A DNA stretch of 64,000 bases from Vicinamibacterales bacterium (GCA_040081715.1 JBEBFY010000015.1:14505-78504); one strand, 5' to 3'. Positions 26,218 through 61,837 are shown, counted from the first letter of the stretch. Made by a program: numbers and translations. The notes: generated by a model not told the origin, from the letters alone.

Positions 26218-26225
26218 GGCGACTG

Positions 26226-26528: not shown

Positions 26529-26544
26529 CCTCGACACGATTCCT

Positions 26545-28860
<2,316 letters not shown>

Positions 28861-28889
28861 GTTAGTCGGGAACCAGAGAACAAGAGGCC

Positions 28890-32101: not shown

Positions 32102-32102
32102 T

Positions 32103-32124
32103 GGCGACGAGTTACCCCGTCGCC
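32103..32124 (+). other. perfect 7-bp stem-loop between nuoN and the atp cluster (no U-tract)
   Basis: GGCGACG-agttaccc-CGTCGCC starts 2 nt after the nuoN stop. It is not followed by a T-run, so it is more likely an RNA processing or stability element than a terminator. Confidence 0.35.
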
Positions 32125-32195
32125 AACCGCGCCGTCGTTTGTTGGTATCATTAGACGTTTGCGCGGGCGCTGATACCGCATGCCGACACCACTGC

Positions 32196-33984: not shown

Positions 33985-34116
33985 GAGCGTTGGCTCCAGG
34001 CGCCGGGTTGCCATGCCCGCAAGGTTCGGGGCGAATGCGGGCCGTGAGGCGTGACTGCGATGGCGAGTAACAAGCGCTGCTCCCCGGGCGGCGACAACAG
34101 AGGAAGGACAGTGCAC

Positions 34117-34461
34117 ATGGATCGCAAGCAGGTTGTTCGTACGGTGTTCGGGTTTGCCGCGGTGGGTCTTGCCGTGATGGCGATGCCGTCGGTGGCGTTT
34201 GCGCAGGAAGCGGCCGAGAATGGCACGTTCCTGACCAGCAACGGCGCGGCGTGGATGGGCGGGGCGATTGGCGCCGGCCTGGCCATCATGGGCGGCGCGG
34301 CCGGCATCGGCCGTATCGGCGGCTCGGCGGTGGAGTCGATGGCGCGGCAGCCCGGTGCGGCCGGTCAGATCTCCACGGCCATGATCATCACCGCGGCCAT
34401 GATCGAAGGCGCGACGCTGTTTGCGGTCGTCGTCGGCATGCTCGCCGTACTGAAGGCGTAA
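34117..34461 (+). CDS. atpE: F0F1 ATP synthase subunit c (N-terminally extended)
   Basis: ARQPGAAGQISTAMIITAAMIEGATLFAVVVGML is the c-ring hairpin with the carboxylate Glu. I chose ATG 34117 (MDRKQ...); an alternative start is 34051. The extension resembles a signal peptide ending AFA-QE. Confidence 0.86.
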   Translation: MDRKQVVRTVFGFAAVGLAVMAMPSVAFAQEAAENGTFLTSNGAAWMGGAIGAGLAIMGGAAGIGRIGGSAVESMARQPGAAGQISTAMIITAAMIEGATLFAVVVGMLAVLKA

Positions 34462-34468
34462 GAGCCTT

Positions 34469-35047
34469 ATGAAACAGCGAGTGCTGGCGGCGCTGCTCGT
34501 CCTGAGCGCGCTCCCGGCGTACGCCTCAGAGGCGGCGCCGGAAGCTGGCCTCAGCCCGTTTGCCGGCGACCTCGGGAATGCCATCTGGACCCTCGGTATC
34601 TTCCTGATCGTCGTGCTGGTGCTCGGGAAGTTCGCGTGGGGTCCCGTACTCGGCATGCTCAAGGAGCGCGAGGACTTCATCCGGAAGTCCCTGCACGACG
34701 CCAAGCGGGACCGCGATGAGGCGGAAGCCAGGCTGAAGGAGTACACGGCCCAACTGCAGGCTGCCCGGTCGGAGGCCGCCTCGCTCGTCGAGGATGCCCG
34801 CCGCGATTCCGAGCGCCTGCGCGAGGAACTGCGGTCCAAGGCGAAGGCCGAGGCCGACACCATCCTGAAGAACGCCGAACGGCAGATTCAACTGGAGACC
34901 GGCCGGGCGCTGGCGCAGATCCGCACCGAGGCGGTTGACCTCTCGGTGATGATCGCCTCGAAGCTCATCGGCCGTAACCTGACCAAGGCGGACAACGAGC
35001 GGTTGATCGAGGACGCGCTCAAACAGGTCGAGGCCAGGCATCAGTAA
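34469..35047 (+). CDS. atpF: F0F1 ATP synthase subunit b
   Basis: 192 aa with an N-terminal TM segment and a long charged coiled coil (ERQIQLETGRALAQIRTEAVDLSV). It directly follows atpE. Confidence 0.87.
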   Translation: MKQRVLAALLVLSALPAYASEAAPEAGLSPFAGDLGNAIWTLGIFLIVVLVLGKFAWGPVLGMLKEREDFIRKSLHDAKRDRDEAEARLKEYTAQLQAARSEAASLVEDARRDSERLREELRSKAKAEADTILKNAERQIQLETGRALAQIRTEAVDLSVMIASKLIGRNLTKADNERLIEDALKQVEARHQ

Positions 35048-38088: not shown

Positions 38089-38206
38089 GGCCCCCATGCG
38101 TACCCCGTTTGGGCCTTTACAACTCCACTCCCCCTGGAAGACACTCAGCCCCCGAGGTCGCCGTTCGTACCTCATCCGGGAAGACTTTGTTCGAAAGGGG
38201 AGGCTA

Positions 38207-41185
38207 ATGAGACTTGTGAAGGTCCGGTGGTTCCTGGCGCTCGCGTTGCTGCTCACGCCGCTGTGTGCCTACGCACAGACATCGGGTTCGATTGCGGGTG
38301 AAGTCAAGGACGCTACGGGCGGCGTGCTCCCTGGCGTTACGGTGGAAGTTGCCAGCCCGGCGCTGATTGAGAAGGTGAGAAGCGCCGTTTCCGACGGTTC
38401 GGGCCTGTACAAGATCACCGACCTCAGGCCGGGCACCTACAGCGTCACGTTCAGTCTGGCGGGTTTTTCCACGGTCAAGCGCGAGGGCATCGATCTGTCC
38501 GCCGGCTTCACCGCGAACATCACGGCGGAGATGAAGGTCGGCTCGATGGAGGAGACGATCGTCGTCTCTGGCCAGGCGCCGGTCGTGGACGTGCAGAACG
38601 TCCGCGAGCAGCGCGTACTCACGCGCGACATCATCGACGCGATCCCCACGGCGAAGTCCATCGCCAACCTCGCCGTCCTCATCCCCGGCATGAACGTGCT
38701 GGGTGCGACGACGGCGGGACAGGACGTCGGCGGTAGCTCGGGCGAGGGTTTCCAGGGCCTGACCATCCACGGCGGGCGCCGCAACGACCAGCAGACGCTG
38801 CTCGATGGCATGTCGGTCGCGATGGTGCAGGCCTTCGCGGGCAGCATCGGGGCCACCACCCTGGGCGACCAGACGATCGAGCAGACGATTCTCTCGGTCA
38901 GCGGGCACTCGGCCGAGTGGGAGACCGGCGGCGTCGTGGCCAACATGCTGCCGAAGCAGGGCGGCAACAAGTTCGGCGGCGGCTTCTTCGCCAACATCGC
39001 CAACGAGTCGACGCAGTCGAACAACTACACCGATGAGCTGAAGGCCCGCGGGCTGACGGCGGCCCTGCCCACGAAGGAAATCCGCGACATCAACCCGTCG
39101 TTCGGCGGTCCCTTGAAGAAGGACAAGCTCTGGTTCTTCACCGCCTACCGCGACGTGCGGGTCGCCAACTATACGAACCAGAGCACCCGGGCGCCGAACC
39201 TCAACCCCACCGGCTTCACCTACGTGCCCGACCTCTCTGTGCGTCCGTACCAGGACCAGATCACCAAGGACGGGGTCGGACGCGTGACGTGGCAGTTGAC
39301 CCCGAAGAACAAGCTGGCGGTGATGTTCGACTGGAACGACAAGATGGAGTACCGGACGCTCTCCGGCCAGCTCGCCGACGAGGCCAACTACATCCAGAAC
39401 TTCCACAGCAACATCATTCAGACGACCTACTCTGCCCCGCTGACCAACCGGTTTCTCGTGGAGGCCGGGATGTCGCTGACCGACGTGCTGCACACCATCG
39501 TGCCGAGGCCTGGCGCCATCGGACCGACGGCGCTCGAGAGCACGACCGGCCAGCGTATCCGCGCCGTTGTCTACGGCGCCGCGCAGAGCCCGCAGGTGTA
39601 TCGCGATGAGGATCAGCGTAACGACGTCTACCGCGTTGCGCTGTCCTACGTGACGGGCTCCCATGGCTTCAAGTTCGGGTTCCAGCAACAGAACGCCTTC
39701 CTGAGCCCCTTGTACGAGGCTCCGGCGGACTACGAGCTGACCCTGGTGCGCGGCGTGCCCAATTCGGTCACCTTCCTCCCGACCCCGTTCCGGCTGACCA
39801 ACTACGCCTACAAGTCCAGCGCCTTCGCGCAGGACCAGTGGAGCGTGAACCGGGTGACCATGAACCTGGGCGTCCGGTGGGACCGGCTCGGGACGCGGTA
39901 TCCGGACTACGACCTCAAGGCGACGAACCTGCTGCCCGCCCGCCAGTTCTCTGGCGCGCACGTGTTCAAGTGGAACGACTTCTCACCGCGCCTCGGTGCT
40001 TCCTGGGACGTGTTCGGCAACGGCAAGACGGCCGTGAAGGTGGCCATGTCCCGGTACGTGCTGCAGGAGACGATGGACCTGACCCGCGTCGTGGACCCGA
40101 CCACCTCATCGGCTGGCACGCTTACCCGCACCTTCGCCGACGCGAACGGTGACTTCGTGCCGCAGGGCGACCCGCTGAACCCCGCCGCGAACGGCGAACT
40201 GGGCCCGAGCCCGAACCAGAACTTCGGCAGACTGGTCCGGACGCTGACCTACGACCCGAAGTGGGCCGAGGGGGTCGGGGTCCGGACCTACAACTGGGAG
40301 TTCTCCACCGGCATCCAGCAGGAGGTGCGGTCCGGGATGTCGGCCAACGTTGCCTTTTACCGCCGGCACTACGGAAACTTCACGGTGACAGACAACACGC
40401 TGGTCTCCGCCGAGAACTTCGACCCGTTCTGCATCACCGCCCCCAGCAACTCGCGGCTGCCGAATGGCGGCGGGCAGCAGATCTGCGGAATGCGCGACCT
40501 GAATCCGTCCAGCCTTGGCCGTCTGCAGAACCTGGGCACACTTGCGAACGACTACGGCAAGCAGGTTGAAACGTGGCAGGGCGTGGACATGGCTCTGAAC
40601 ACCCGCCTGAAGAACAAGGCGACGCTGCAGGGTGGCTTCAGCTTCGGGCGGTCGCTCACGGACAACTGTGAGATCTTTAAGGCCGTGCCCGAAGCGGGCA
40701 CGACCGGAATCGCTTCGCCCCTGGGCGGACCCTACTGCCGCCAACTGCAGCCGTACCAGAAGCAGGTAAAGGTCCTCGGGTCGTATAACCTTCCGTGGGC
40801 ACTGGTGGTCTCCGGCACCTTCCAGAGCGTGCCAGGCGCCGTGGTTTCGGCGAACGCGGTCGCGAATAATACGCAGATCGCGCCCTCGCTCGGGCGGAAC
40901 CTCTCCGCCGGCGCTACGGCGACGACGACCATCAATCTGATCTCACCCAACACGGTGTATGGGGACCGGATCAATCAGATCGACATGCGCTTCACCCGCG
41001 TATTCAAGATCCGGACGGCCTCGATCCGGACGATGCTGGACCTGTATAACTTGGCCAACCGGAGCACGGTCGTGTCGTGGAACAACACCTACGGCGCGCT
41101 CGCCGGTGGCGGCGCGACCTGGTTGACCCCGCTCGGGATCCTCCCGGCGCGCCTCATTAAACTTGGAGTGCAGCTCGACTTCTAG
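38207..41185 (+). CDS. TonB-dependent receptor with N-terminal CarboxypepD_reg-like domain
   Basis: Trimmed to ATG 38207 (AAGGGGAGG SD). Features are a signal peptide (CAYAQ), GSIAGEVKDATGGVLPGVTVEV...SDGSGLYKITDLRPGTYSVTFSLAGF, a long beta-barrel, and a terminal ...LGVQLDF aromatic residue. Confidence 0.87.
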   Translation: MRLVKVRWFLALALLLTPLCAYAQTSGSIAGEVKDATGGVLPGVTVEVASPALIEKVRSAVSDGSGLYKITDLRPGTYSVTFSLAGFSTVKREGIDLSAGFTANITAEMKVGSMEETIVVSGQAPVVDVQNVREQRVLTRDIIDAIPTAKSIANLAVLIPGMNVLGATTAGQDVGGSSGEGFQGLTIHGGRRNDQQTLLDGMSVAMVQAFAGSIGATTLGDQTIEQTILSVSGHSAEWETGGVVANMLPKQGGNKFGGGFFANIANESTQSNNYTDELKARGLTAALPTKEIRDINPSFGGPLKKDKLWFFTAYRDVRVANYTNQSTRAPNLNPTGFTYVPDLSVRPYQDQITKDGVGRVTWQLTPKNKLAVMFDWNDKMEYRTLSGQLADEANYIQNFHSNIIQTTYSAPLTNRFLVEAGMSLTDVLHTIVPRPGAIGPTALESTTGQRIRAVVYGAAQSPQVYRDEDQRNDVYRVALSYVTGSHGFKFGFQQQNAFLSPLYEAPADYELTLVRGVPNSVTFLPTPFRLTNYAYKSSAFAQDQWSVNRVTMNLGVRWDRLGTRYPDYDLKATNLLPARQFSGAHVFKWNDFSPRLGASWDVFGNGKTAVKVAMSRYVLQETMDLTRVVDPTTSSAGTLTRTFADANGDFVPQGDPLNPAANGELGPSPNQNFGRLVRTLTYDPKWAEGVGVRTYNWEFSTGIQQEVRSGMSANVAFYRRHYGNFTVTDNTLVSAENFDPFCITAPSNSRLPNGGGQQICGMRDLNPSSLGRLQNLGTLANDYGKQVETWQGVDMALNTRLKNKATLQGGFSFGRSLTDNCEIFKAVPEAGTTGIASPLGGPYCRQLQPYQKQVKVLGSYNLPWALVVSGTFQSVPGAVVSANAVANNTQIAPSLGRNLSAGATATTTINLISPNTVYGDRINQIDMRFTRVFKIRTASIRTMLDLYNLANRSTVVSWNNTYGALAGGGATWLTPLGILPARLIKLGVQLDF

Positions 41186-41195
41186 GATCCACACC

Positions 41196-41639
41196 GTGTC
41201 ATCCTGCCGCCAGGTTCTGGCCGCCCTCGCGCTCGCGATCGGGTGCGTGCTGGGCTTGGCGGCGCAATCTCCGAAGTCGCAGTTCCCCAAGTCACAATGG
41301 GCCGGCGTCTACACCGACGCGCAAGCCATGCGGGGCGAGCCGCTGTATGTCGAGAACTGCTCGATGTGCCACGGTCTGAAGCTGGCCGGAACCGTTCTGG
41401 CCCCGCCGCTGGCTGGGCCCACCTTCAACGCCAAGTGGAACCGGCGCGCTCTGTCGCTGGTCTTCAACATCCTGCAGACGCAGATGCCGCTGAATCTCAG
41501 CGGCCATCTCAGTCCCCAGCAGAACGCCGAGGTGCTGGCGTACATGCTCCGGGCCGGTGACCACCCGTCTGGTGCGGTGGATCTGCCTGCCGGAGCGGAT
41601 GCCCTGAAGGCGATCACCATTCTCGAGCAGAAGCCGTGA
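41196..41639 (+). CDS. monohaem c-type cytochrome
   Basis: GTG 41196 gives a signal peptide (alternative ATG 41163). One CSMCH haem site is present, with distal MPLN. Confidence 0.84.
   Translation: MSSCRQVLAALALAIGCVLGLAAQSPKSQFPKSQWAGVYTDAQAMRGEPLYVENCSMCHGLKLAGTVLAPPLAGPTFNAKWNRRALSLVFNILQTQMPLNLSGHLSPQQNAEVLAYMLRAGDHPSGAVDLPAGADALKAITILEQKP
41271..41300 (+). repeat. imperfect in-frame 15-nt tandem duplication (PKSQF/PKSQW)
   Basis: The two units ccgaagtcgcagttc and cccaagtcacaatgg lie just after the predicted signal peptide of the cytochrome c. Confidence 0.7.
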
Positions 41640-42805
41640 GCCAGATGCAGAGCGCCCCTGGGAGCATGGTCGTCCGCGGCTGTCTCGTGCTGGCGTGCGC
41701 CGCGGTCCTCGCGTGGAACACCCCGCACTCCGTCGTGGGGCAGGCACAGGTCGTGGGGCAGGCACAGCCGCTCGGACTGAAGCCCAATACCGTGGCGGGG
41801 CTCGGTGATCCTGTGGCGCCGCCGGTTGGTGACCCCGTCTCCCAGTACTACACGGAGGAGCAGGCCACACGTGGCCGCGCCCAGTTCCTGCGTAATTGCG
41901 GCGTGTGTCATACGGCCGCGCCGCTCATCACCCGCGACATGCTGCCGCCCGAGGCCGGCTTCTACCGCACGGAGCACACCTTCATTCCGCTCGGCGGTGC
42001 CTTCCCGCGGAAGTACCCGACGATGTACCACCTGTTCCGGCGCATCCGCGACACGATGCCGGCGGGCAACTCTGCCGCGGTCAGCCCGGCTGCGAAGCTG
42101 GACATCATCGCGTTCCTGCTGAAGGCAGGCGGGTTTCCGGCAGGCAAGACGCCGCTGACGCTCGACATCGCGGCGATGAAGCGGATGCCTCTCAATGAGC
42201 AGGGCTTTGATGTCGTGTTTGACGGGAAGGATCTGTCGGGCCTCGGCGTCGTCCTGGGGTTCATGTGCAAGCCGGCGCCGCTCGGCTGCGGCACGACCGA
42301 CCCTGGCACCGTCGTTCGCGTTGATGCCGCGAAGCAGGAGCTCGTCTATGTGGGCCAACCCGAGGGCTACTGGCACACGAAGAAGCAGTACCGCAACTTC
42401 GACATCCGGTTCGACATGCTGTTCGAGAAGCCGCCGGACTCCGATCCCGACGACACCTTCTTTGACGGCAACGGCGGCGTGCTCTTCCCCGTCACCGAGC
42501 ACTTCGTCTATCCCCCGACCGGGTCACGAATCGAGGTGCAGGGTCACAACAGGAACCTGATGGCCGTGCTGGGCTCCCAGGGGTCGCTCCTGGACGCGGA
42601 CACACGTGACCGCGTGCAGCGCCCGGTGGGGCAGTGGAACTCCGTCCGTGTCGTCAACGTGAACGGGACCGTCACGACCTACATCAACGGGGCGCTCATC
42701 GGCCGGGGCACGCACCCCTACACGGCGGCTGGCTATGTGATCTTCCAGCTTGAAGGCGTGGCGATGCGCTTCAGGAACATCCGCATCAAAGATTTGAAGG
42801 ACTAG
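41636..42805 (+). CDS. cytochrome c domain fused to DUF1080 (3-keto-disaccharide-hydrolase-like) domain
   Basis: GTGA overlap with the upstream cytochrome gene. One CGVCH haem site is present. The C-terminal ~200 aa (GFDVVFDGKDLSGL...W..KKQYRNFDIRFDM...WNSVRVV..G..TTYINGA...G.V.FQ.EG..MRFRNIRIKDL) match the DUF1080/PF06439 pattern. Confidence 0.82.
   Translation: MSQMQSAPGSMVVRGCLVLACAAVLAWNTPHSVVGQAQVVGQAQPLGLKPNTVAGLGDPVAPPVGDPVSQYYTEEQATRGRAQFLRNCGVCHTAAPLITRDMLPPEAGFYRTEHTFIPLGGAFPRKYPTMYHLFRRIRDTMPAGNSAAVSPAAKLDIIAFLLKAGGFPAGKTPLTLDIAAMKRMPLNEQGFDVVFDGKDLSGLGVVLGFMCKPAPLGCGTTDPGTVVRVDAAKQELVYVGQPEGYWHTKKQYRNFDIRFDMLFEKPPDSDPDDTFFDGNGGVLFPVTEHFVYPPTGSRIEVQGHNRNLMAVLGSQGSLLDADTRDRVQRPVGQWNSVRVVNVNGTVTTYINGALIGRGTHPYTAAGYVIFQLEGVAMRFRNIRIKDLKD
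41732..41767 (+). repeat. perfect in-frame 18-nt tandem duplication (VVGQAQ x2)
   Basis: gtcgtggggcaggcacag occurs twice back to back at 41732-41749 and 41750-41767. Confidence 0.9.
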
Positions 42806-42806: not shown

Positions 42807-44273
42807 TCAGTCGATCGTCAGGCGGACCACCAGCCCGTACTTCCCGGTGTTCGACAGGCTGTCGCGCTGATTGCCATCAACCGGCCAGATGCCTGAGACC
42901 TGCGGAAAGGGGTTGTCGTCGAACGTCTTGTAGATGCCGACCCGCGTGTGCTTCCACAGGTCCACGAACACGCGCACGGCCGTCATCCGATCCTTCTCGC
43001 CTTCGGTGACGCCGTACAGGCCCTGGGCCGAGAGCCACGAGATGAGGCTGTCGGCCCGATCGATCTCCTCGTGCGTGACGCTGCCACCGATCGAGACCGC
43101 CGGGGTGAGCGGCACGTGGCCCTGCGCGCTGAACCAGTAGCCCTGCTTGGTGATCGACGACCAGTTCACGCCGACCATCTCGGCTGAACTCTCCGTGGGG
43201 CCCCACGTGTAGCGGGCCCACTCGCCCATCAGTTGGAGGTTGGGCAGGGGTGTGAACGACGCGCTGGCCACGACGGCGTTGTCATAGCGTTTCGACGCCC
43301 AGTAGGTGGGAAGCCGCTCGACCTTGCTGCCGGTAAAGCCCCGCTTGACGGACGCACGGACCTCGATGGCGTCCAACGGCGAGAACGACGCGGAGGCCAT
43401 GGCCGTCAGCGCCGAATTGGCGTCGAGCGTGTCGTCCTCGAAGTAGAAGTAGTCGTAGTCGAACCACCGATTGCCGTCCCCAAGGAAGCCGGCGAGGTTG
43501 CCGGAGAAGAGCGGTTTCTTGCGTCCCGCCACCGGCCTGGCATAGCCGAACATCAGGCCGAAGTTGCCCTCGGCATTGATGCGCTGAATCCGGGGCGTGT
43601 CCTTGGCGGTCATTGAGCCCGCTGCCTGCCAGTCAAGACCGAGTGGCAGCAGCATCCGGCCGAAGCGGACCGAGAAGTTGTCCGTGGCACGCAGTTCGGC
43701 GAAGGCCTCGCGAATGGCACCCTGTTGGGATGGCACATCGAGCGCGATGCCGCGATAGGCGTCCACGCGCCGGTTGCCGTTCTTCGGCGCACAGGGAACG
43801 TTGGGTCCGCCCACGCCCGCGTAGAGACGCACGGGGTCGTTGGGGAAGAAGAAACCCGGTGCGCCACACGCGGGCAGCGGGTCGCGTTCATTCACCGGGT
43901 TCATCGCGACCCGGTAGAACACACGGTCGTTGGGCCGGCCCTCGATCGTGACGATGGCGTAGCCGACGCGCCCCTGGTTCTCGAAGCCCAGCGTCGCGTT
44001 GGCGCCGTCCTTTCCCCAGCCGGCCATGAACGCGGCCTTGACCCACAGCTTGGACGAGTTGGGGAGGGGGATGCCAGGGTCCTGGGCGCCGGCGGCCGGA
44101 CCGCCTTCTGGCTCCTGCGTGCTGGAGTCGGTAAGGGCAGCCACCGCGGTGCCCATCCGTAGGGTCTCCTGGGCTCCTGCGGTACCGGCGACGAACGCGC
44201 CAACGGCGCAGAGCGTGAGCGCGCGGCGGAGCCGGACGAGACACGCGTGAGAACGGGACAAAGGGCGCATCAA
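42807..44273 (-). CDS. hypothetical outer-membrane beta-barrel (porin-like) protein
   Basis: 488 aa with a signal peptide (AVGAFVAGTAGAQ). It is rich in alternating Y/G/N beta-strand patterns and has a terminal strand YGLVVRLTID. No named family is recognised. Confidence 0.6.
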   Translation of the reverse strand: MMRPLSRSHACLVRLRRALTLCAVGAFVAGTAGAQETLRMGTAVAALTDSSTQEPEGGPAAGAQDPGIPLPNSSKLWVKAAFMAGWGKDGANATLGFENQGRVGYAIVTIEGRPNDRVFYRVAMNPVNERDPLPACGAPGFFFPNDPVRLYAGVGGPNVPCAPKNGNRRVDAYRGIALDVPSQQGAIREAFAELRATDNFSVRFGRMLLPLGLDWQAAGSMTAKDTPRIQRINAEGNFGLMFGYARPVAGRKKPLFSGNLAGFLGDGNRWFDYDYFYFEDDTLDANSALTAMASASFSPLDAIEVRASVKRGFTGSKVERLPTYWASKRYDNAVVASASFTPLPNLQLMGEWARYTWGPTESSAEMVGVNWSSITKQGYWFSAQGHVPLTPAVSIGGSVTHEEIDRADSLISWLSAQGLYGVTEGEKDRMTAVRVFVDLWKHTRVGIYKTFDDNPFPQVSGIWPVDGNQRDSLSNTGKYGLVVRLTID

Positions 44274-44286: not shown

Positions 44287-44703
44287 TCAGTACATCTGGT
44301 AGAGCATTACGTAGATCACGACACCGGTGACGGAGACGTACATCCACAGCGGGAAGGTGACCTTCGCGATCCTGCGGTGACGCGCGAAGTCGCTGCGCAA
44401 GCCGCGGAGCGTAGTCGTAATGACCAGCGGCACGATGACGATCGCCAGGATGACGTGGGTGATGAGAATCGTGTAGTAGACGTAGCGGATCGGGCCCTGC
44501 CCAGGGAACGGCTTCGAGAGCACGTTCAGGTGGTAGATCACGTAGGAGATCAGGAACAGCGTGGAGGAGCCGAGCGCGGCGAGCATCGTACGCTTGTGCG
44601 CCTCACGCTTGCCCTGCTTGATCAAGGTGACGCCAAGTGAGAGCAGGATGAACGACAGGCCGTTGAGCGTGGCGTTCAGGGCTGGCAGGTCTGACACGGA
44701 CAT
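44287..44703 (-). CDS. DUF420 membrane protein (CtaM-like, haem-copper oxidase associated)
   Basis: 138 aa. LPALNATLNGLSFILL...GKREAHKRTMLAA...FARHRRIAK..FPLWMYVS is typical of DUF420/PF04238. Confidence 0.84.
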   Translation of the reverse strand: MSVSDLPALNATLNGLSFILLSLGVTLIKQGKREAHKRTMLAALGSSTLFLISYVIYHLNVLSKPFPGQGPIRYVYYTILITHVILAIVIVPLVITTTLRGLRSDFARHRRIAKVTFPLWMYVSVTGVVIYVMLYQMY

Positions 44704-44721
44704 GGCTATCCCTTCTTCAGC

Positions 44722-45654
44722 CTACTGGAGCCACAGGCGATCGATGACCAGCGCGCCCCACAGCACAGGCAGGTAGATGATCGACGCCAGAAAGAGGCGG
44801 CGGGCGGACGCATGCGTCAACGCCTGGGCGAAGGCGACGGCGATGCCGATGAGCGCCACACCAAGGGCCGCCGCCACAACCAGGTAGGGCGTGCCGGCGA
44901 GGCCGACGTAGGCGGGCGTCTCACTGGCCACGACCAGCGCCACGGCGTAGAGCCACGCCTGCCGGCCGGTGCTCCGCCCGTCCGGCTCGACCACCGGCAG
45001 CATCTGCAGCCCGGCGCGCGCGTAGTCCTCGCGGTACATCCATGCGATGGCGAAGAAGTGCGGCATCTGCCACAGGAATACGATGGCGAACAGGGACACG
45101 GCACCCCAGCCGATGTCGCCGGTGGCCGCGGCCCAGCCAATAACTGGTGGGAGCGCGCCGGGGAACGCCCCGACCAGTGTGGAGTGCCAGGTGCGGCTCT
45201 TGAGTGGCGTATACACCACGACATAGCTGACCAGGGTGACCAGCGCCACGGCGGCGGCCATCAGATTCACACCGAGCGTCAGCTCTCCCAGGCCCAACAC
45301 GGAGAGGAGCAGGCCGAAGGCGGCGGACTCGGCCATGCTCAATCGACCCTGCGGGAGGGGGCGCCTGCGCGTGCGGTGCATCAGGCCGTCGGTGTCCCGC
45401 TCCCACACCTGGTTGAGGGCCGAGGCGCCGCCAGCGACCAGCCCGGTGCCGATGAGCGTATGCGCGAGCAAGGCCAGGGGCACGCCATCTGGCGAGGCGA
45501 TGTAGAGCCCAGCCAGTGTCGTGAAGAGGACGAGCAGATTCAGCCGCGGCTTGGTGAGCGTGACGAAGTCTGACGGCCTGCCAGGCCGGACGACCGGATC
45601 CGCCTCGGCTATCCGCTCCGGCGACGCCACACCCGCTGCGGGGGCGGTCGTCAC
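44722..45654 (-). CDS. ctaB: protohaem IX farnesyltransferase (haem O synthase)
   Basis: Only the last 310 codons of the 557-aa track ORF are coding. GTG 45654 overlaps the ctaA stop (GTGA); an alternative start is GTG 45630. UbiA motifs TLTKPRLNLLV and NQVWERDTDGLMHRTRRRPLP are present. Confidence 0.88.
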   Translation of the reverse strand: MTTAPAAGVASPERIAEADPVVRPGRPSDFVTLTKPRLNLLVLFTTLAGLYIASPDGVPLALLAHTLIGTGLVAGGASALNQVWERDTDGLMHRTRRRPLPQGRLSMAESAAFGLLLSVLGLGELTLGVNLMAAAVALVTLVSYVVVYTPLKSRTWHSTLVGAFPGALPPVIGWAAATGDIGWGAVSLFAIVFLWQMPHFFAIAWMYREDYARAGLQMLPVVEPDGRSTGRQAWLYAVALVVASETPAYVGLAGTPYLVVAAALGVALIGIAVAFAQALTHASARRLFLASIIYLPVLWGALVIDRLWLQ

Positions 45655-46631
45655 GCCCGGGCTCCAGCCCTGGCCGAGGAACCTGTCGTCGTAGCCCTCG
45701 TGGCCCCGGTCGCGCTCGCGTGGCGGCCGAACAGCCGGTGTGTGCGGAGGGCGAGCACCAGCGTCGTGCCCAGTACCAGGGCGCCATTGGCCACATGGGC
45801 CGAGTTGACGACGAATTGTTTGGCGGTCCACACGACGTACGCGCCGAGTGTCACCTGCGCACAGAGCAGCACGAGCAGGAGGAGCGCCGGGTTCCTGAGC
45901 GACGGTCTGCGCCAGTGGTGGGCGAAGACATGCCCGGAGGTGGCCAGCACCAGGAACGAGACGGCCACCGCACCCATCCGATGGGCGAAGTGAATCGCAA
46001 TCTTCGCGTCCCAGTGCGGCGGAATGAGGTGCCCGAACGCGAAGGGAAAGTCCGGAATGGCCAGGCCGGCCTCGGTGTGCCGCATCGTGGCGCCCAGAAT
46101 AATCTGCAAGTAGGCGGCGACAGTCGTTGCCGTGACCAACCGGGTCAGCAGCACGTCGCCTTCCCGGGCCGCGCCGGTCATGCGCTGGTACCCCTCCTGC
46201 CAGCCCCGTGAGGTGACGGTGGCGACGGTCAGCGTGAGGCAGAACACCAGTTGCGCCAGACCCGCGTGCGAAATCGAAATCGGGGCGGGCAGGAAGTAGA
46301 TCACGGTCAGCCCGCCGAGGATGCCCTGCGTGATCACGGCGCCGAGCGCCACGAAGCCGACGCGCCTGACCCATCGCCGCGGTTCCGCCTTCCACAACCA
46401 GACGGCGAGGATCACCATCAGGAATCCGACCGTGCTGGCGATCAGGCGGTGGCCGTGCTCATAGAAGATGCCGCCGACCATCTTGTCGAGCGGGAAGGAG
46501 AACATGAACCAGCCGTAGGTATTCGGCCAGTCCGGCACGGAGAGACCCGAGCCAGTGCTCGTGACGAGTCCGCCCGCAAAAATGAGGATGAGGGTGGCGG
46601 CAACGACGAGGCGGGAGAAGAGATTCAACAT
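45651..46631 (-). CDS. ctaA: haem A synthase (COX15/CtaA)
   Basis: Trimmed to ATG 46631 (MLNLFSRLVVAA). GGLVTSTGSGLSVPDWPNTYG and the His-containing helices (EHGHRL, HFAHRM) are present. Confidence 0.9.
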   Translation of the reverse strand: MLNLFSRLVVAATLILIFAGGLVTSTGSGLSVPDWPNTYGWFMFSFPLDKMVGGIFYEHGHRLIASTVGFLMVILAVWLWKAEPRRWVRRVGFVALGAVITQGILGGLTVIYFLPAPISISHAGLAQLVFCLTLTVATVTSRGWQEGYQRMTGAAREGDVLLTRLVTATTVAAYLQIILGATMRHTEAGLAIPDFPFAFGHLIPPHWDAKIAIHFAHRMGAVAVSFLVLATSGHVFAHHWRRPSLRNPALLLLVLLCAQVTLGAYVVWTAKQFVVNSAHVANGALVLGTTLVLALRTHRLFGRHASATGATRATTTGSSARAGARA

Positions 46632-46709
46632 CAAGCACCGGTGCCGCCAGGGCACCCGCATCCGACCGGATACGGGCCCCTGACAGTCCGGCTGAAAACG
46701 TGTGACCGA

Positions 46710-56961: not shown

Positions 56962-56979
56962 GTCGCACTAATGTGCGAC
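56962..56979 (+). promoter_or_regulatory. perfect 7-4-7 inverted repeat, candidate antitoxin operator
   Basis: GTCGCAC-taat-GTGCGAC ends 10 nt upstream of the AbrB-type antitoxin ATG (56989). Confidence 0.4.
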
Positions 56980-56988
56980 GATGACCCT

Positions 56989-57216
56989 ATGACCAAGGCA
57001 GTCACGCTCCGTCAGGCCGGGGGCTCTGTCAGCGCCACCCTTCCCAAGGACATGGCCGACCGCCTGCGCCTGGAAGCCGGTGATCGCGTACTCGCGGTTG
57101 AAACCGACCAGGGAATCCTGCTCACGCCATACGACCCCGAAACACAGCGAGCGCTGACGGTGGCCGCAGGCGTCGCCAAGAAGTATCGCAACGCCCTCCG
57201 CGAACTGGCGAAGTAG
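56989..57216 (+). CDS. AbrB/MazE/SpoVT-family antitoxin
   Basis: 75 aa. VTLRQAGGSVSATLPKDMADRLRLEAGDRV is the swapped-hairpin SpoVT/AbrB motif. Its stop lies 2 nt before the Doc gene. Confidence 0.85.
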   Translation: MTKAVTLRQAGGSVSATLPKDMADRLRLEAGDRVLAVETDQGILLTPYDPETQRALTVAAGVAKKYRNALRELAK

Positions 57217-57218
57217 TC

Positions 57219-57623
57219 ATGGCGGCGCGTCGTCCTGAGCCGATGTGGCTCACACGCATCGTCGTGGATGCCATCCACAACGATCAGCTTCGCGAGCACG
57301 GTGGACTCCCCGGAGTCCGGGACGAGAACGTGCTGGAGTCGGCACTCGCCCGCGCGCAGCAGAAGTGGCACTACGCCGAAGATCGCGCCATCCCCAGTTT
57401 GGCGGCCGCCTACGCATTCGGCCTGGTCAGGAACCATCCCTATCGTGACGGCAACAAGCGCATCGGCCTCCTGGCCATGGCGACGTTCCTCGGATTGAAC
57501 GGCCATGAACTGACCGCCACCGAAGGCGAGGTTATCCACGCGATCGTTGCGTTGGCCTCCGGCACGACCAGCGAAGAGGCCTTTTCGAACTGGGTGACGG
57601 AACACAGCCGCAAGGCCGACTGA
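57219..57623 (+). CDS. doc: Doc (death-on-curing) Fic-domain toxin
   Basis: GG.PGVRDENVLESALARAQ and the Doc-variant Fic motif HPYRDGNKRIG are present. Confidence 0.9.
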   Translation: MAARRPEPMWLTRIVVDAIHNDQLREHGGLPGVRDENVLESALARAQQKWHYAEDRAIPSLAAAYAFGLVRNHPYRDGNKRIGLLAMATFLGLNGHELTATEGEVIHAIVALASGTTSEEAFSNWVTEHSRKAD

Positions 57624-57692: not shown

Positions 57693-59090
57693 ATGACCAC
57701 ACACACATTCGTTCTGAGCGGCGTGCTGGCAGCCGGGCTCGCCAGCGCGTTTGCCCTCGCCCCTCGCACCGCCGCGCAGCAAGCCGCGGCATCGACATGG
57801 AACGGCGCATTCACCGAGGCGCAGGCCACACGCGGCGATGCGCTGTTCGGCCGCTTCTGCGCCAATTGCCACAGCCGGGATCTCGCCGGCGGTGACCGCG
57901 GACCGGCAGTCGCAGGACCAGGCTTCAGCGCGAAGTGGAGCGCGAAGCCGGTCATCGAGCTGCTGGGCTACATCCAGGGCGCCATGCCGCTGAACGGCCC
58001 CGGCACGGTCGGCCGGCAGCAGAACGCCGACATCCTCGCGTTCATGTTGAAGAAGAGTGGTGCGACGGCTGGCGCCAAGGATCTCGCGCCATTCCCAGGC
58101 CCCGAGCCGCTCGAAGCGGCCGCACCGCCGCCCCCGGGACCGGTGGCGACACCGGTGACCACCCGCCTCGACGCCTACTACACCGAGAGCCAGGCGGCCC
58201 GCGGCAAGGCCGCGTTCAACAGGAACTGCCTCTACTGCCACGGCGTCGATCCGAAGCGCTCGACGCCGGCGGATCTCGTGTTCGCGCTGCCGAGCTCGTT
58301 CGCGGGCCACTTCCTCGAGCGCATCGTCAACGACAAGCGGGTGTATCCGAGCGTCTACGTGCTCTACAGCAAGTTTCAGAGCATGCCCGCCACCGACACG
58401 CGCTCGATCACCAATCAGAACCGGGTCGATATCGCGGCCTACATCCTTCAGGCGAACGGCTATCCCGCCGGTGCGACGGAGATCCCGGTTGACGCCGACG
58501 CGATGCGGCTGATGAATCTGAACGAGCCGGGTTTTGAACCGGTCTTCAACGGGAAGGACATGACCGGCCTGCGGTTCCGGTACGGCAACCTCAACGCGCC
58601 GCCGCCAGGCCAGCTCACGATCGAGAACGGCGTGATGGCCTGCGCGTGCAACGCCCACGGCGAGTGGGAAACCGTGAAGCGCTACAAGGACTTCATCCTG
58701 AAGTTCGACATGCGCTTCGAGCGTCCGGCCGACTGGTCCGGAGACGATGAGCTGTTCAGCGGCGGCAGCGGCATCTACATCCTCGGGCGGCCCACCGGCA
58801 ACGGCAGCATCGAAGTGGAAGGGCGGCACCGCGACTTCCTGCAGCTCTTCGCCATCGGCGGCAAGGCGACGTGGACGCAGGATCTCGACGCCAAGCGCCG
58901 CGCGATCCGTCCCCTGGGCGAGTGGAACTCCGTGGAGATCGTCTCCAAGGGGCAGACGGTCAAGGTGTTCCTCAATGGCACGCTGGTGACGACCGCCACC
59001 GACCATGACTACACCGCGCCGGGACACATCAGGTTCCAATCCCAGGGCGCGAAGATGTACTGGCGCAACGTTCGCGTCCGGCCGGAGTAG
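57693..59090 (+). CDS. dihaem cytochrome c fused to DUF1080 (3-keto-disaccharide-hydrolase-like) domain
   Basis: Trimmed to ATG 57693 (signal peptide). It has two haem sites (CANCH, CLYCH) separated by a Pro/Ala linker. The C-terminal GFEPVFNGKDMTGL...YKDFILKFDMRFE...WNSVEIVSKGQTVKVFLNG...G.IRFQSQGAKMYWRNVRVRP is DUF1080-like. It is a paralogue of 41196..42805. Confidence 0.83.
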   Translation: MTTHTFVLSGVLAAGLASAFALAPRTAAQQAAASTWNGAFTEAQATRGDALFGRFCANCHSRDLAGGDRGPAVAGPGFSAKWSAKPVIELLGYIQGAMPLNGPGTVGRQQNADILAFMLKKSGATAGAKDLAPFPGPEPLEAAAPPPPGPVATPVTTRLDAYYTESQAARGKAAFNRNCLYCHGVDPKRSTPADLVFALPSSFAGHFLERIVNDKRVYPSVYVLYSKFQSMPATDTRSITNQNRVDIAAYILQANGYPAGATEIPVDADAMRLMNLNEPGFEPVFNGKDMTGLRFRYGNLNAPPPGQLTIENGVMACACNAHGEWETVKRYKDFILKFDMRFERPADWSGDDELFSGGSGIYILGRPTGNGSIEVEGRHRDFLQLFAIGGKATWTQDLDAKRRAIRPLGEWNSVEIVSKGQTVKVFLNGTLVTTATDHDYTAPGHIRFQSQGAKMYWRNVRVRPE

Positions 59091-59092
59091 CC

Positions 59093-60928
59093 ATGCATGC
59101 TCGTGTGATGTGGGTCACTGTCGCCGCAGTGATCGCGGCCACGTCTTCAGCCAGGGTCCAGGCGCAGGGATTCACCGTGCCGGCGACGGCCCCGCTCGTG
59201 TACGCAGAGCGCTGCGCGTCGTGTCACGACAAGCCCGAGGCCTCCCGCGCGCCGAGCCTCGACGTGCTGCGCGCGAAAACACCGGAGGCCATCTACGCGG
59301 CCATGACCACCGGCCCGATGCAGCCGCAGTCGAAGGACATGTCGGACGCCACGAAGAAGCTCCTGGCGGAATTCCTGTCCGGCCGCACGATGGGTACGGC
59401 CGCGTCGGGTGACGCGTCGGCGATGCCGAACCGCTGCGCGCCGAAGCCGCTGGGCGATCCGCTCAAGGGCAACGGATGGAACGGCTGGGGCGTCGACCTC
59501 GCGAACACGCGCTACCAGGAGAAGCCCGGGATCACCGCCGGCAAGGTGCCGCGGTTGACGCTCAAGTGGGCGTTCGGCTTCCCGAACGCGACATCCGCGT
59601 ACGGGCAACCGGCGGTCATGGGCGGACGCGTGTATGCCGGGTCGGACGCCGGTTACGTGTACTCGCTCGACGCCGGCACCGGCTGCGTCTACTGGTCGTT
59701 CGCACCGAAGGCCGGCATGCGGACCGCGATCAGCGTGGGCCCCGTGAAGGGTCAGCGTAACAAGTACGCCGTCTACTTCGGCGACCTCAGAGCCAACGTC
59801 TACGCCATCGACGCCGAGACCGGTGCGCTGCTCTGGACGCAGACGGCCGACACGCATGCCTTCGCGCGCATCACCGGCGCACCGGTTCTGCACGACAACC
59901 GGCTCTATGTCCCGCTCGCCTCACTCGAAGAATCAGCGGGGGGCCTCCCGACCTATGAGTGCTGCACGTTCCGCGGGAGCATCGCTGCGTACGACGCGAG
60001 TACCGGGAAGCCACTCTGGAAGACGCACACCATCGCGGAGCCACCGAAGCCGACGCGGAAGACGTCGCTCGGCACACAGATGTATGGACCGTCGGGCGGC
60101 GCGATCTGGTCCGCGCCGGCGATCGACGTGAAGCGCAAGCTGCTCTATGTGACGACCGGCGATGCGTACAGCGAGCCTGCCGACATCGCCACCGACGCCG
60201 TCATGGCGATCGAGTTGGAGACGGGCGCGGTCCGATGGACCCAGCAGATGCTCGCGGGCGATGCGTGGCTCGTCGGGTGTGCGCAGGACCCTAACGCACC
60301 CGGACGATCGGAGACTTGCCCGCAGAGCCAGGGGCCGGACGCCGACTTCGGGAGCAACGCGTCGCTCGTCAAGCTGCCCGGTGGCAAGGACATCGTCGTC
60401 GCGCAGCAGAAGTCGGCCGTTGTGTGGGGCGTCGACCCCGACAAGGGCACCGTGATCTGGTCCACGAAAATTGGCCGCGGCGGCCCGGTGCAGTTTGGCC
60501 ACGCCACCGGCGACGGCCTCGGCTACTTCGCCGCGCCCGACCCGCGCGCCACCGACGAACTCGGCGGGCTGTGGGCGCTGAATCTCGCGACCGGTCAGAA
60601 GGTGTGGCGCACAGCCATCACGTGCAAGCCGGAGGACAAGGGCTGCACGTCCGCGCATCTCGGGGCGGTCAGCGCCGCGCCGGGCGTCGTCTTCGCGACC
60701 ACGTCGGACGGCAAGGTGCGGGCCTATGGATCGGCCGACGGCAAGGTGATGTGGGAGTACAACACCGCCCGCGAGTACGAAGCCGTCAACCGCATGCTGG
60801 CCAAAGGCGGCAACATCAGCGGTCCCGGCCCGGTGATCGTGGACGGGATGGTCTTCATCAGCTCGGGCTACTCCGCGATCGGCGGCCCCGGCCCTGGGAA
60901 CGTGCTGCTGGCGTTTGAAGTGAAGTAG
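59093..60928 (+). CDS. quinohaemoprotein: N-terminal cytochrome c + PQQ beta-propeller (PVA-dehydrogenase-like architecture)
   Basis: 611 aa with a signal peptide and a CASCH haem site at the N-terminus. PQQ-propeller repeats follow (VYAGSDAGYVYSLDAGTGCVYW, VYAIDAETGALLW, VMAIELETGAVRW, LWALNLATGQKVW, VRAYGSADGKVMW). Confidence 0.86.
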   Translation: MHARVMWVTVAAVIAATSSARVQAQGFTVPATAPLVYAERCASCHDKPEASRAPSLDVLRAKTPEAIYAAMTTGPMQPQSKDMSDATKKLLAEFLSGRTMGTAASGDASAMPNRCAPKPLGDPLKGNGWNGWGVDLANTRYQEKPGITAGKVPRLTLKWAFGFPNATSAYGQPAVMGGRVYAGSDAGYVYSLDAGTGCVYWSFAPKAGMRTAISVGPVKGQRNKYAVYFGDLRANVYAIDAETGALLWTQTADTHAFARITGAPVLHDNRLYVPLASLEESAGGLPTYECCTFRGSIAAYDASTGKPLWKTHTIAEPPKPTRKTSLGTQMYGPSGGAIWSAPAIDVKRKLLYVTTGDAYSEPADIATDAVMAIELETGAVRWTQQMLAGDAWLVGCAQDPNAPGRSETCPQSQGPDADFGSNASLVKLPGGKDIVVAQQKSAVVWGVDPDKGTVIWSTKIGRGGPVQFGHATGDGLGYFAAPDPRATDELGGLWALNLATGQKVWRTAITCKPEDKGCTSAHLGAVSAAPGVVFATTSDGKVRAYGSADGKVMWEYNTAREYEAVNRMLAKGGNISGPGPVIVDGMVFISSGYSAIGGPGPGNVLLAFEVK

Positions 60929-61028: not shown

Positions 61029-61418
61029 ATGTGGTCCACCGTCGAGTTGCGCTCCGCGCTTGAGGCGGTTCCCGAGTTGCAACTGGCCGTCATGTTCGGC
61101 TCGGCGGCCCGTGGCGCGCTTACCCGCGAGAGCGATCTGGACATTGGCATTCTCGGAGTCTCGCCGGCGCGCCTTCCTGACCTCGGGGTCCGCCTGGCGC
61201 GGATAGCTGGGCGGGACGCGGATCTTGTTGCGCTGGAAACCGCTCCGCCCTTGCTGCGATTCGAGATCGCTCGTGACGGCGTGCTGCTGCTGGAGCGCGA
61301 CCCGGGCCAGTGGGCTGACGTCCGGGCGCGCGCCATGGTCGATTGGTGGGAGTGGGCACCGACGGCCCACCGGTTAGCCTCCGCCGCTATGGCCCGGTTG
61401 GAGCAGAAGGCGCGCTGA
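61029..61418 (+). CDS. MntA-type nucleotidyltransferase antitoxin
   Basis: FGSAARG...ESDLDIG carries the minimal nucleotidyltransferase motifs GSxxRG and DxD. Confidence 0.85.
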   Translation: MWSTVELRSALEAVPELQLAVMFGSAARGALTRESDLDIGILGVSPARLPDLGVRLARIAGRDADLVALETAPPLLRFEIARDGVLLLERDPGQWADVRARAMVDWWEWAPTAHRLASAAMARLEQKAR

Positions 61419-61837
61419 TGGTCCGCCGCGATGTGGCGAGAACCCGCGTGACCAGGGCGGCCGCGTGGCTCACTGATGCCGAAGGGCTGTTTGGCTCGGA
61501 CGCTGAGTCGTTCGAAGCCGCGACCAAGGATCGTGACCTTGCGATCTTCTACCCCTTCCTGGCGCTCCAGGAATGCATCGATCTGGCGGCGCACTGGGTG
61601 GCGGACGCTGGGTGGGGAGCGCCAGACGACGCGGGTTCCGCGTTTGATGAATTAGCCTCCCGCGCCGCGATCTCGCGAGGGGTTGCCGACCGTATGCGCG
61701 CGGGAGTCGGTCTTCGGAACCGGATCGCACATGGCTACGCCCTCCTGGACTACGGTCGGGTGCGCTCAGAAGCTCTGGAAGACATCCCTTCGCTCAAGGC
61801 GTTTCTTGCCTCGGTCGGCCGCGAAGCCGGTCTATAG
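61418..61837 (+). CDS. HepT-type HEPN (DUF86) toxin
   Basis: ATG 61418 overlaps the MntA stop (TGATG). The HEPN motif is RNRIAHGY (Rx4H). Confidence 0.85.
   Translation: MVRRDVARTRVTRAAAWLTDAEGLFGSDAESFEAATKDRDLAIFYPFLALQECIDLAAHWVADAGWGAPDDAGSAFDELASRAAISRGVADRMRAGVGLRNRIAHGYALLDYGRVRSEALEDIPSLKAFLASVGREAGL

Follow-up and report, generated by a model that had tools for sequence, protein, structure and literature searches.

A 64,000-nucleotide stretch of DNA from a Vicinamibacterales bacterium (GCA_040081715.1, JBEBFY010000015.1:14505-78504), here called the window, carries a gene at 57693..59090 whose product joins two haem c domains to a DUF1080 domain, and which is followed directly by a gene for an enzyme with a pyrroloquinoline quinone (PQQ)-type beta-propeller. 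A second locus in the window (36400..42805) encodes the corresponding cytochrome parts in two adjacent genes, in a row that likewise contains a PQQ enzyme. We find that fused and split forms of this cytochrome c::DUF1080 system both recur among relatives, that its cytochrome or cytochromes and DUF1080 domain very probably act as one periplasmic functional unit, and that PQQ-type dehydrogenases are recurrent but facultative neighbours. These proteins are a rare, uncharacterised family in which known parts appear in a new combination; a literature search found no paper on cytochrome c::DUF1080 proteins.

The fused protein matches two split gene products

All four open reading frames on which the original prediction was built, namely the fused gene, its PQQ neighbour and the two split genes, were recovered at the coordinates given in Table 1. 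The prediction held that the fused protein aligns domain by domain with the two split products, and pairwise alignment bears this out. Residues 1-131 of the fused protein align with residues 1-130 of the stand-alone cytochrome (38% identity, 92 bits, E 5e-27), and residues 150-463 align with residues 59-385 of the split cytochrome::DUF1080 protein (36% identity, 200 bits, E 3e-64). Non-corresponding pairs of haem domains match far more weakly (E 4e-08 and E 1e-13), and thus the correspondence is specific, beyond a general cytochrome c resemblance. Pfam assigns two cytochrome domains (Cytochrome_CBB3/Cytochrom_C) plus PF06439 to the fused protein (90.1 bits; cut-off 26.8), and a single cytochrome domain plus PF06439 to the split one (69.9 bits; same cut-off). 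PF06439, the former DUF1080, currently bears the Pfam name '3-keto-disaccharide hydrolase'.

We defined the family as proteins covering the core formed by haem domain 2 and DUF1080, and pooled 99 full-length members from all searches. Relatives are given below by identifier (P for proteins, L for DNA loci) where they have to be told apart. The family is rare: when 1.84 billion representatives were searched exhaustively with HMMER, only 60 proteins reached E <= 1e-30. Both haem domains of the fused protein have the features of His/Met class I c-type cytochromes (C56ANCH with M97-P98, and C179LYCH with M231-P232). In haem domain 2, residues C179, C182 and H183 are invariant across the 99 members, as is P232, and M231 is retained in 92.

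The ATG at 57693 is the likely start, since both this codon and the 465-residue length are common to the closest homologue (P0001, 95% identity). By inspection, each of these proteins begins with a hydrophobic signal sequence, as would be expected if the cytochrome proteins are periplasmic. An AlphaFold2 model of the fused protein (mean predicted local distance difference test score, pLDDT, 84.8) contains two helical domains and a beta-sandwich. Confidence is low in the Pro-rich linker between the haem domains (pLDDT 64-71) and high at the junction of haem domain 2 with DUF1080 (83-92). This modelled arrangement fits an invariant, rigidly joined haem 2::DUF1080 core, with haem 1 as a flexibly tethered or separately encoded module.

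In at least 90% of aligned family members, both Cys residues of a 'GPNCxPAPxGCG' loop are present. This loop is missing from the window's fused protein (region 58575..58650, residues ~295-320) and from its nearest relatives (P0001-P0003), which retain the C-x-C-x-x-H-G motif characteristic of their clade (MACACNAHG).

Fused and split states recur across the family

About 71 of the 99 members are dihaem proteins (two CxxCH motifs; 446-614 amino acids) and about 27 are mono-haem (one CxxCH; 346-389 amino acids). With one exception, each split gene that could be read in DNA is adjoined by a small gene for a haem-1-type cytochrome, which lies upstream in L087, L088/89, L092, L107 and window locus 1, and downstream in L104. 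The exception is the second mono-haem paralogue in L107, which is followed by a dihaem paralogue. Furthermore, many fused members have a haem domain 1 that shares 43-48% identity with the stand-alone cytochrome of locus 1. A composite protein is therefore homologous to two separate ones, both states recur and the separate genes are linked, as Rosetta-stone reasoning demands. This recurrence, together with the haem-1 cytochrome gene beside split genes, gives good support to the original inference that the cytochromes and DUF1080 work as one unit.

In a neighbour-joining tree of the core, the basal clades contain split forms only and the derived clades are mostly fused. Split forms are also nested among fused ones (P0038/37/41; P0048; and the 41636..42805 product with P0228, P0240, P0239 and P0072), and this interspersion implies several fusion and/or fission events. 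The two cytochrome::DUF1080 genes of the window fall in different deep clades and are thus old paralogues. A recent duplication of the module can be rejected on these grounds and on their 36% identity. The PQQ enzymes of the two loci also belong to different subfamilies (24% identity), so that the description of locus 2 as a second copy of the module gives way to one of two paralogous systems.

It is exceedingly improbable that either state is an artefact of frameshift, assembly or gene-calling error with no real fusion or fission behind it, and we take that explanation as already refuted. The fused form recurs at 95% (P0001), 92% (L090), 74% (P0002) and 70% (P0003) identity and in about 70 clusters. 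The split form of ~373 amino acids, with its own signal peptide, recurs in 15 relatives (66-95% identity), and the adjoining cytochrome gene was confirmed in the DNA of five foreign loci. A public contig that spans 57400-61100 shows zero differences from the window. We found no support for an artefact, although among the 'split' database entries some that come from short contigs may have lost their N-terminus in gene calling.

A Planctomycetaceae metagenome-assembled genome (MAG) encodes a stand-alone 270-residue DUF1080 protein (L001, 9615..10187) that is 36% identical to the cytochrome-fused domain and has family-specific features, namely the insertion after the FTLRFD strand and FQSEG in place of LQxHG. 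The DUF1080 subtype of the family therefore also exists without a cytochrome.

PQQ-type dehydrogenases as candidate electron donors

We propose that the fused protein would serve as a secreted, periplasmic c-type cytochrome that accepts electrons from periplasmic PQQ-dependent dehydrogenases. Candidate donors at locus 2 are the presumably co-transcribed haem c::PQQ enzyme encoded by the next gene (PQQ2) and possibly an enzyme of the glucose/sorbosone dehydrogenase (GSDH) family encoded farther downstream. At locus 1, the candidate is a PQQ enzyme resembling sorbose dehydrogenase (PQQ1). Electrons would pass from the dehydrogenase to haem 1, then to haem 2 and on to the respiratory chain.

The strongest argument that cytochromes of the haem-1 type may take electrons from such enzymes comes from direct fusions elsewhere. 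A haem-1-type domain, 37-41% identical to those of the window, forms the N-terminus of 704-728-residue proteins whose remainder is 44-45% identical to PQQ1, and also the N-terminus of a 556-residue protein whose remainder is 36% identical to the window GSDH. This cytochrome type thus occurs on its own and as a fusion to three kinds of partner: haem 2::DUF1080, PQQ1-type dehydrogenases and GSDH-type dehydrogenases. Within the window, the ATG of PQQ2 lies 2 nucleotides past the stop codon of the fused gene, and a GGAG, the ribosome-binding site, lies 7 nucleotides upstream of this ATG, inside the end of the fused gene.

Gene neighbourhoods in other bacteria give a mixed picture. Among ten independently ascertained foreign loci, each found via the cytochrome, four have a PQQ or GSDH gene within 2 kb of the family gene. 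These are P0038 (L088/89; a 585-residue PQQ protein at +1.3 kb), P0047 (L103; a 599-residue PQQ protein at +1.5 kb and a second PQQ gene), P0357 (L107/108; a cytochrome c::PQQ gene in the cluster) and the fused homologue P0022 (L102), where a gene for a protein 56% identical to the window GSDH lies 200 nucleotides upstream. No PQQ or GSDH gene is present within 2 kb at P0003 (L081-83; 70% identity), P0006 (L084), P0018 (L085/86), P0048 (L087) and P0069 (L104), nor on the 7.3-kb Joint Genome Institute (JGI) contig of P0002 (74% identity). A further pairing, reached from the PQQ side, is seen in L105/106, in which a family gene lies on the opposite strand, 2 kb from a PQQ2 orthologue (P0089, 71% identity). 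The original claim that a PQQ partner accompanies the cytochromes is therefore borne out in a weaker form: absence of this neighbour from orthologous loci, which the original prediction named as its refutation, is seen in some lineages but not in others.

The most informative locus is a larger cluster in L107, from a related Vicinamibacterales MAG (GCA_050183355.1). There, genes for a TonB-type outer-membrane protein (OMP), a cytochrome c and a cytochrome c::DUF1080 protein are syntenic with locus 1 at 87%, 71% and 75% identity, respectively. They are followed, after 13 nucleotides, by a gene for a 724-residue cytochrome c::PQQ protein, and then by genes for a glyoxalase-like protein, mono-haem::DUF1080 and dihaem::DUF1080 proteins, a major facilitator superfamily (MFS) transporter and a PQQ-propeller protein. 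One more PQQ gene lies upstream of the syntenic block. In all, the cluster (1..21128) contains three family paralogues (375, 380 and 457 amino acids), three PQQ-propeller genes and two genes for TonB-type OMPs, along with an SGL/gluconolactonase-like gene and the glyoxalase-like and MFS transporter genes already mentioned.

Several observations weigh against a functional pairing. Six of the ten foreign loci lack a PQQ or GSDH neighbour, including those of the closest relatives with context (P0003 and P0002), and P0018 is set among housekeeping genes. Other neighbours recur as well: PSCyt/PSD with HXXSHH (DUF1501) and ankyrin genes, DUF4440/SnoaL genes and DUF5916 genes. PQQ2 has a haem of its own, and the PQQ2 family is ~50 times larger than the cytochrome family, which means that most of its members work without a cytochrome::DUF1080 protein.

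Taken to their limit, these points would make the adjacency coincidental, in that these Acidobacteria carry many PQQ-propeller genes, two pairings in a single window would then carry little weight, and the cytochrome::DUF1080 protein might act in an unrelated process. Consistent with such coincidence, a PQQ2 orthologue (P0088, 76% identity) has no family gene within 8 kb, the PQQ partners are not orthologous between loci, and two toxin-antitoxin pairs bracket locus 2, suggesting a variable region. Nevertheless, we judge coincidence improbable. The genes at locus 2 appear translationally coupled, the synteny in L107 continues into a cytochrome c::PQQ gene within a cluster that has two further PQQ genes, and the same cytochrome type is fused directly to PQQ1-like and GSDH-like enzymes. 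Moreover, the six loci without a near neighbour contain zero PQQ genes in ~75 kb in total, and so the background is not high. A rough binomial estimate for four of ten loci gives P 0.001-0.013 at chance rates of 5-10% (about 0.006 at 8%), where the background rate of PQQ genes is itself approximate, being drawn from little DNA. The data support a real and recurrent but facultative association, and PQQ and GSDH dehydrogenases are probably among the physiological electron donors of the cytochrome::DUF1080 proteins.

Two of the other neighbour sets deserve mention. Where a PQQ gene is not close by, the family gene frequently adjoins genes for PSCyt/PSD proteins (cytochrome c-containing, planctomycete-type), HXXSHH (DUF1501) proteins and ankyrin-repeat proteins (L087, L104 and L102). 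Genes of the DUF4440/SnoaL type are found repeatedly as well, in L081, L084, L088 and L105. Such neighbours may represent alternative partners.

The DUF1080 domain has a conserved but remodelled polar site

The DUF1080 domain of the family is readily recognized by both profile and structure. Profile alignment with hhalign against 32 canonical DUF1080 domains gave a probability of 100% (E 5e-56); this canonical set was drawn from a genome-contig scan whose 80 loci all proved to be common DUF1080 genes from other phyla, with similarity confined to residues ~250-465 of the fused protein. With the AlphaFold2 model as query, the top 18 Foldseek matches are all DUF1080 structures (probability 1.00, E 5e-10 to 3e-08, target template-modelling scores 0.47-0.61). 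These include BT2 (8tda), AL2 (8v31) and a 3-keto-glycoside eliminase/hydratase (8rr2/9fbe), and they are followed by CBM66 modules and GH16 glucanases.

Known members of this domain family suggest what the domain might do. The 3-keto-glucoside lyase/hydratases of Bacteroides are DUF1080 proteins with an active site comprising E103, N134, E164, Q166, Y190, K245, Q273 and H275 (bioRxiv 10.1101/2024.03.25.586180). In Caulobacter, lactose utilization requires both the lactose 3-dehydrogenase LacABC and, downstream of it, the periplasmic DUF1080 protein CCNA_01705, a 3'-ketolactose 'hydrolase' (PMC9007349). A DUF1080 protein from a planctomycete has been reported as an endo-xanthanase/lichenase (PMC9007349, PMC5673643).

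We mapped the residues of one such enzyme, BT2157, onto the 99 family members by motif position and profile alignment rather than by superposition. Part of the site is retained: the equivalent of E164 is E374 (Glu in 76/99), that of Q166 is position 376 (Glu, Gln or Asp in 94/99) and that of Q273 is Q449 (Gln in 96/99). Thus, the domain belongs to PF06439 and has its jelly-roll fold, the active-site set of BT2157 and AL2 is incomplete, which places the domain outside the BT2157-type enzyme class, and comparison of the sequences indicates a polar site that is conserved but remodelled.

We further propose that the domain binds, or may carry out elimination or hydration on, the oxidised (keto) carbohydrate or polyol that the dehydrogenase would release. 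A carbohydrate-type ligand is suggested by the PF06439 fold, by the conserved polar positions and by the sugar/polyol dehydrogenases that are the nearest solved relatives of PQQ1. In the operon, this domain is the only relative of the 3-keto-glycoside lyase/hydratases, whose function is known. Here too there are points on the other side. The equivalent of H275 is position 451, which is Gln (57) or Glu (42) in all 99 members and never His. The equivalent of N134, the Asn of the NSG motif, is G45/N37 across the family and Gly in the fused protein of the window. The segment, or finger, that bears Lys245 is absent, and Y190 has no conserved counterpart. In addition, no glycoside 3-dehydrogenase of the Gfo/Idh/MocA or flavin adenine dinucleotide (FAD)-GMC families was found among ~45 scanned window products. 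A catalytic role on the oxidised product, rather than a role as a binding module, is accordingly a tentative proposal that we do not favour.

The missing catalytic residues, combined with the variable neighbourhoods described above, could instead mean that the protein is a general periplasmic electron carrier, in which a non-catalytic DUF1080 domain, binding carbohydrate or a partner, serves to anchor the cytochrome to the cell envelope, to a polysaccharide or to various redox partners, and PQQ enzymes are some of several such partners. Several loci have no dehydrogenase, the catalytic His is never present and other active-site positions vary. CBM66 carbohydrate-binding modules are among the structural matches, annotations of DUF1080 and CBM66 overlap (PMC5673643), and a fungal PQQ pyranose dehydrogenase joins a cytochrome, a PQQ domain and a carbohydrate-binding module (CBM) in one protein (PMC4332668). 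In contrast, the strong conservation of E374, position 376, Q449 and position 451 fits a defined ligand or metal site. Within the family, DUF1080 never occurs without haem domain 2, and the modelled junction is rigid, which suggests a role more specific than that of a tether. We consider a general carrier somewhat unlikely. The fuller reading, in which the protein is the periplasmic electron acceptor of PQQ dehydrogenases and its DUF1080 domain binds or converts oxidised carbohydrate, has in our estimation about an even chance of being correct.

Relation to known systems

BT2157 ('BT2'), the Alistipes protein 'AL2' (8tda, 8v31) and CCNA_01705 share the Pfam family and jelly-roll fold of the window domain and are likewise secreted or periplasmic. 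Like the activity proposed here, theirs follows, or is proposed to follow, the oxidation of a sugar hydroxyl by an oxidoreductase. The window family keeps the E-x-[EQ] motif and the Gln of LQxHG, whereas the His of LQxHG is always Gln or Glu, the Lys245 finger is absent and the NSG Asn is often Gly. Unlike BT2157, AL2 and CCNA_01705, the window DUF1080 domains share a polypeptide with either one or two cytochrome domains of the c type. Their neighbours are PQQ enzymes, whereas the partners of BT2157- and CCNA_01705-type proteins are Gfo/Idh/MocA or FAD-GMC glycoside 3-dehydrogenases.

The cytochrome part invites comparison with cytochromes that are dedicated acceptors for soluble quinoproteins, such as cytochrome cL (methanol dehydrogenase) and cytochrome c550 (ethanol dehydrogenase), and with the type II quinohaemoprotein alcohol dehydrogenases (ADHs; 1kv9, 1kb0). 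All have class I c-type domains with CxxCH and a Met ligand, are encoded beside or fused to PQQ propellers and pass electrons on to the respiratory chain, as proposed for the window proteins. None of these is, like the fused protein, a dihaem cytochrome with a carbohydrate-type domain. Also, the PQQ fusions of relatives carry the haem-1-type domain N-terminally, whereas type II ADHs carry theirs C-terminally.

A further parallel is the pva operon of Sphingopyxis sp. 113P3, which comprises a PQQ/haem c polyvinyl alcohol (PVA) dehydrogenase, a cytochrome c acceptor and an oxidised-PVA hydrolase (summarised in PMC11644497). Both systems have a periplasmic haem c quinohaemoprotein, a dedicated c-type cytochrome in the same operon and an enzyme that cleaves, or in the window might cleave, beside the new keto group. 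They differ in that the cytochrome and the putative processing domain of the window are one polypeptide, and in that DUF1080 is a jelly-roll rather than a serine hydrolase. It is very unlikely that PVA is the natural substrate.

The fungal PQQ pyranose dehydrogenase CcPDH (AA12) consists of a cytochrome domain, a PQQ domain and a CBM1 (PMC4332668). It resembles the proposed arrangement in that one electron-transfer system unites a PQQ sugar dehydrogenase with a cytochrome and with a module that recognises carbohydrate, and differs in having haem b rather than haem c, a single chain and a CBM1, and in being eukaryotic and extracellular. If the DUF1080 domain of the window only binds, the bacterial proteins would be an analogue of this fungal arrangement of cytochrome and CBM.

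Acidobacteria are among the most abundant bacteria of soil and freshwater, and carry many PQQ-type dehydrogenases that lack assigned substrates and electron acceptors. A cytochrome genetically tied to PQQ enzymes is a concrete acceptor candidate, and its DUF1080 domain hints at a substrate class of sugars, glycosides or polyols. In its most far-reaching form, our proposal would amount to a periplasmic, respiration-coupled 'oxidise-then-eliminate' route in Vicinamibacterales. A PQQ enzyme would make a keto-sugar, one dihaem polypeptide would both remove the electrons and cleave or hydrate the product at the remodelled DUF1080 site, and a TonB-type receptor would import substrate, PQQ or lanthanide. 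We regard this complete scheme as doubtful. If true, it would be a PQQ/cytochrome-driven counterpart of the nicotinamide adenine dinucleotide (NAD)- and FAD-dependent 3-keto-glycoside pathways in which acceptor and lyase are physically fused. A catalytic DUF1080 domain would mean that the cleavage of glycosides via keto intermediates, as in gut Bacteroidota and in Alphaproteobacteria, also has a PQQ-dependent form linked to respiration, and would offer enzyme design a natural example of electron removal and product conversion on one protein.

Genes of the two loci

The features of both loci are listed in Table 1.

Table 1 Features of the two cytochrome c::DUF1080 loci in the window
Feature	Coordinates	Strand	Remarks
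PQQ1, PQQ dehydrogenase without haem domain, 562 aa	36400..38088	+	Pfam PQQ, E 4e-66; first gene of a tight four-gene row
TonB-dependent-receptor-like outer-membrane protein, 1029 aa	38096..41185	+	Pfam CarboxypepD_reg, Plug and beta-barrel
Stand-alone mono-haem cytochrome c, 147 aa	41196..41639	+	Orthologous to haem domain 1 in the fused gene product
Mono-haem cytochrome c::DUF1080, 389 aa, own signal peptide	41636..42805	+	4-nt overlap with the preceding gene
Fused cytochrome::DUF1080 gene, 465 aa	57693..59090	+	Open reading frame, Pfam; signal peptide, haem c 1, Pro-rich linker, haem c 2, DUF1080/PF06439 jelly-roll
Haem c domain 1, residues ~35-130	57795..58082	+	CANCH 57858..57872; distal Met-Pro, residues 97-98; Pfam Cytochrome_CBB3, residues 43-118
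Haem c domain 2, residues ~159-270	58167..58502	+	CLYCH 58227..58241; distal Met231-Pro232; Pfam Cytochrom_C, residues 168-254
DUF1080/PF06439 domain, residues 278-465	58524..59087	+	Pfam, hhalign, Foldseek
PQQ2, quinohaemoprotein-type gene, 611 aa	59093..60928	+	Signal peptide, haem c, PQQ-type beta-propeller; CASCH 59213..59227, residues 41-45
GSDH-type gene, 441 aa	62069..63394	-	Six-bladed, PQQ-dependent glucose/sorbosone dehydrogenase family; Pfam GSDH, E 2e-113

The genes of locus 1 (PQQ1, TonB-type OMP, cytochrome c and cytochrome c::DUF1080) are separated by 7, 10 and -4 nucleotides. The gene for the large OMP thus stands between PQQ1 and the cytochrome genes, which corrects the original description. 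Among solved structures, PQQ1 is closest to three enzymes of the sugar/polyol type, namely ADH-IIG, sorbose dehydrogenase (4mh1) and 4cvb (E 4e-90 to 2e-85). Orthologues of the split cytochrome c::DUF1080 protein are 352-379 amino acids long (66-95% identity).

The TonB-type OMP of the row would provide the entry route for the substrate or for a cofactor, and could be a substrate importer. TonB-dependent importers of PQQ and of lanthanides are known, and by analogy one may speculate that this protein imports PQQ or a lanthanide chelate instead. Its 87% identical orthologue in L107 is likewise encoded directly upstream of the cytochrome c and cytochrome c::DUF1080 genes, and a second L107 copy is 39% identical.

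PQQ1 has the motif H-D-L-D where ADH-IIG and sorbose dehydrogenase have W-D-Q-E. In XoxF-type enzymes, an Asp two residues past the catalytic Asp is an extra lanthanide ligand, and on this motif PQQ1 might be lanthanide-dependent. PQQ1 also gives a sub-threshold NCBIfam match to 'acido-empty-quinoprotein group A'.

PQQ2 carries its own N-terminal haem c, as originally described; Pfam matches Cytochrome_CBB3 to residues 36-95 and PQQ/PQQ_2 to the sequence from residue 129 onwards. Its family comprises more than 5000 clusters, is automatically named 'polyvinyl alcohol dehydrogenase (cytochrome)' by JGI and appears in NCBI, in entries for Vicinamibacterales and further Acidobacteriota, as 'PQQ-binding-like beta-propeller repeat protein'. 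All 119 of 119 close homologues have one N-terminal CxxCH, and the motifs CxxCH, GPM, SlEE, Y-CC-FRGS, GPD and QKS are invariant. When PQQ2 is aligned with the type II ADH 1kv9, the Cys-Cys and catalytic Asp (WD motif) positions of the ADH are not conserved. The domain order, with haem c preceding the PQQ propeller, is that of PVA-dehydrogenase-type enzymes (EC 1.1.2.6). No alpha/beta-hydrolase gene adjoins PQQ2, where an oxidised-PVA (beta-diketone) serine hydrolase would be expected in a pva-like operon; it is flanked by the cytochrome::DUF1080 gene on one side and by toxin-antitoxin genes on the other. The 'PVA-dehydrogenase-type' label is a provisional one, taken from domain order and the automatic JGI name.

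The GSDH gene begins 1.1 kb past PQQ2, with a toxin-antitoxin pair between them. Indeed, such pairs flank the fused-gene/PQQ2 operon on both sides: a MazE-type antitoxin and Fic/Doc toxin at 56971..57623, and an MNT nucleotidyltransferase and HepT-like RNase at 61029..61837. In the 92%-identical relative L090 (metagenome contigs; 12 loci of <=3.6 kb), the adjacency of the fused gene is preserved, and no MazE/Doc match was found in the 718 nucleotides upstream of that gene. The flanking pairs and this difference suggest a locally variable region.

A scan of 56900-61200 revealed no promoter-like sites and three terminator-like sites, all on the minus strand and not above the number in shuffled sequence (mean 1.9). 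One freshwater metatranscriptome yielded only short contigs on PQQ2 (94-96% alike), none of which spans the junction with the fused gene.

Directly downstream of locus 1, a convergent gene (42807..44273, minus strand) encodes a secreted 488-residue protein that has no Pfam or NCBIfam match and by its composition looks like an outer-membrane beta-barrel.

The window is rich in respiration-related genes, which lie at 14370..35047 and 44287..46661. Genes for haem synthesis in the window encode a class-III aminotransferase (consistent with HemL), a HemC-type porphobilinogen deaminase and a fused tetrapyrrole methylase/uroporphyrinogen-III synthase (HemD-type). Other respiratory genes encode a cytochrome c assembly protein, nuo subunits, ATP synthase F0 subunits a, c and b, DUF420, a UbiA-family prenyltransferase (consistent with CtaB) and a COX15/CtaA-family protein. 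This context is consistent with a respiratory role of the cytochrome::DUF1080 proteins, although it is no proof of one. By its source habitat, the bacterium is a drinking-water, biofilter or freshwater organism.

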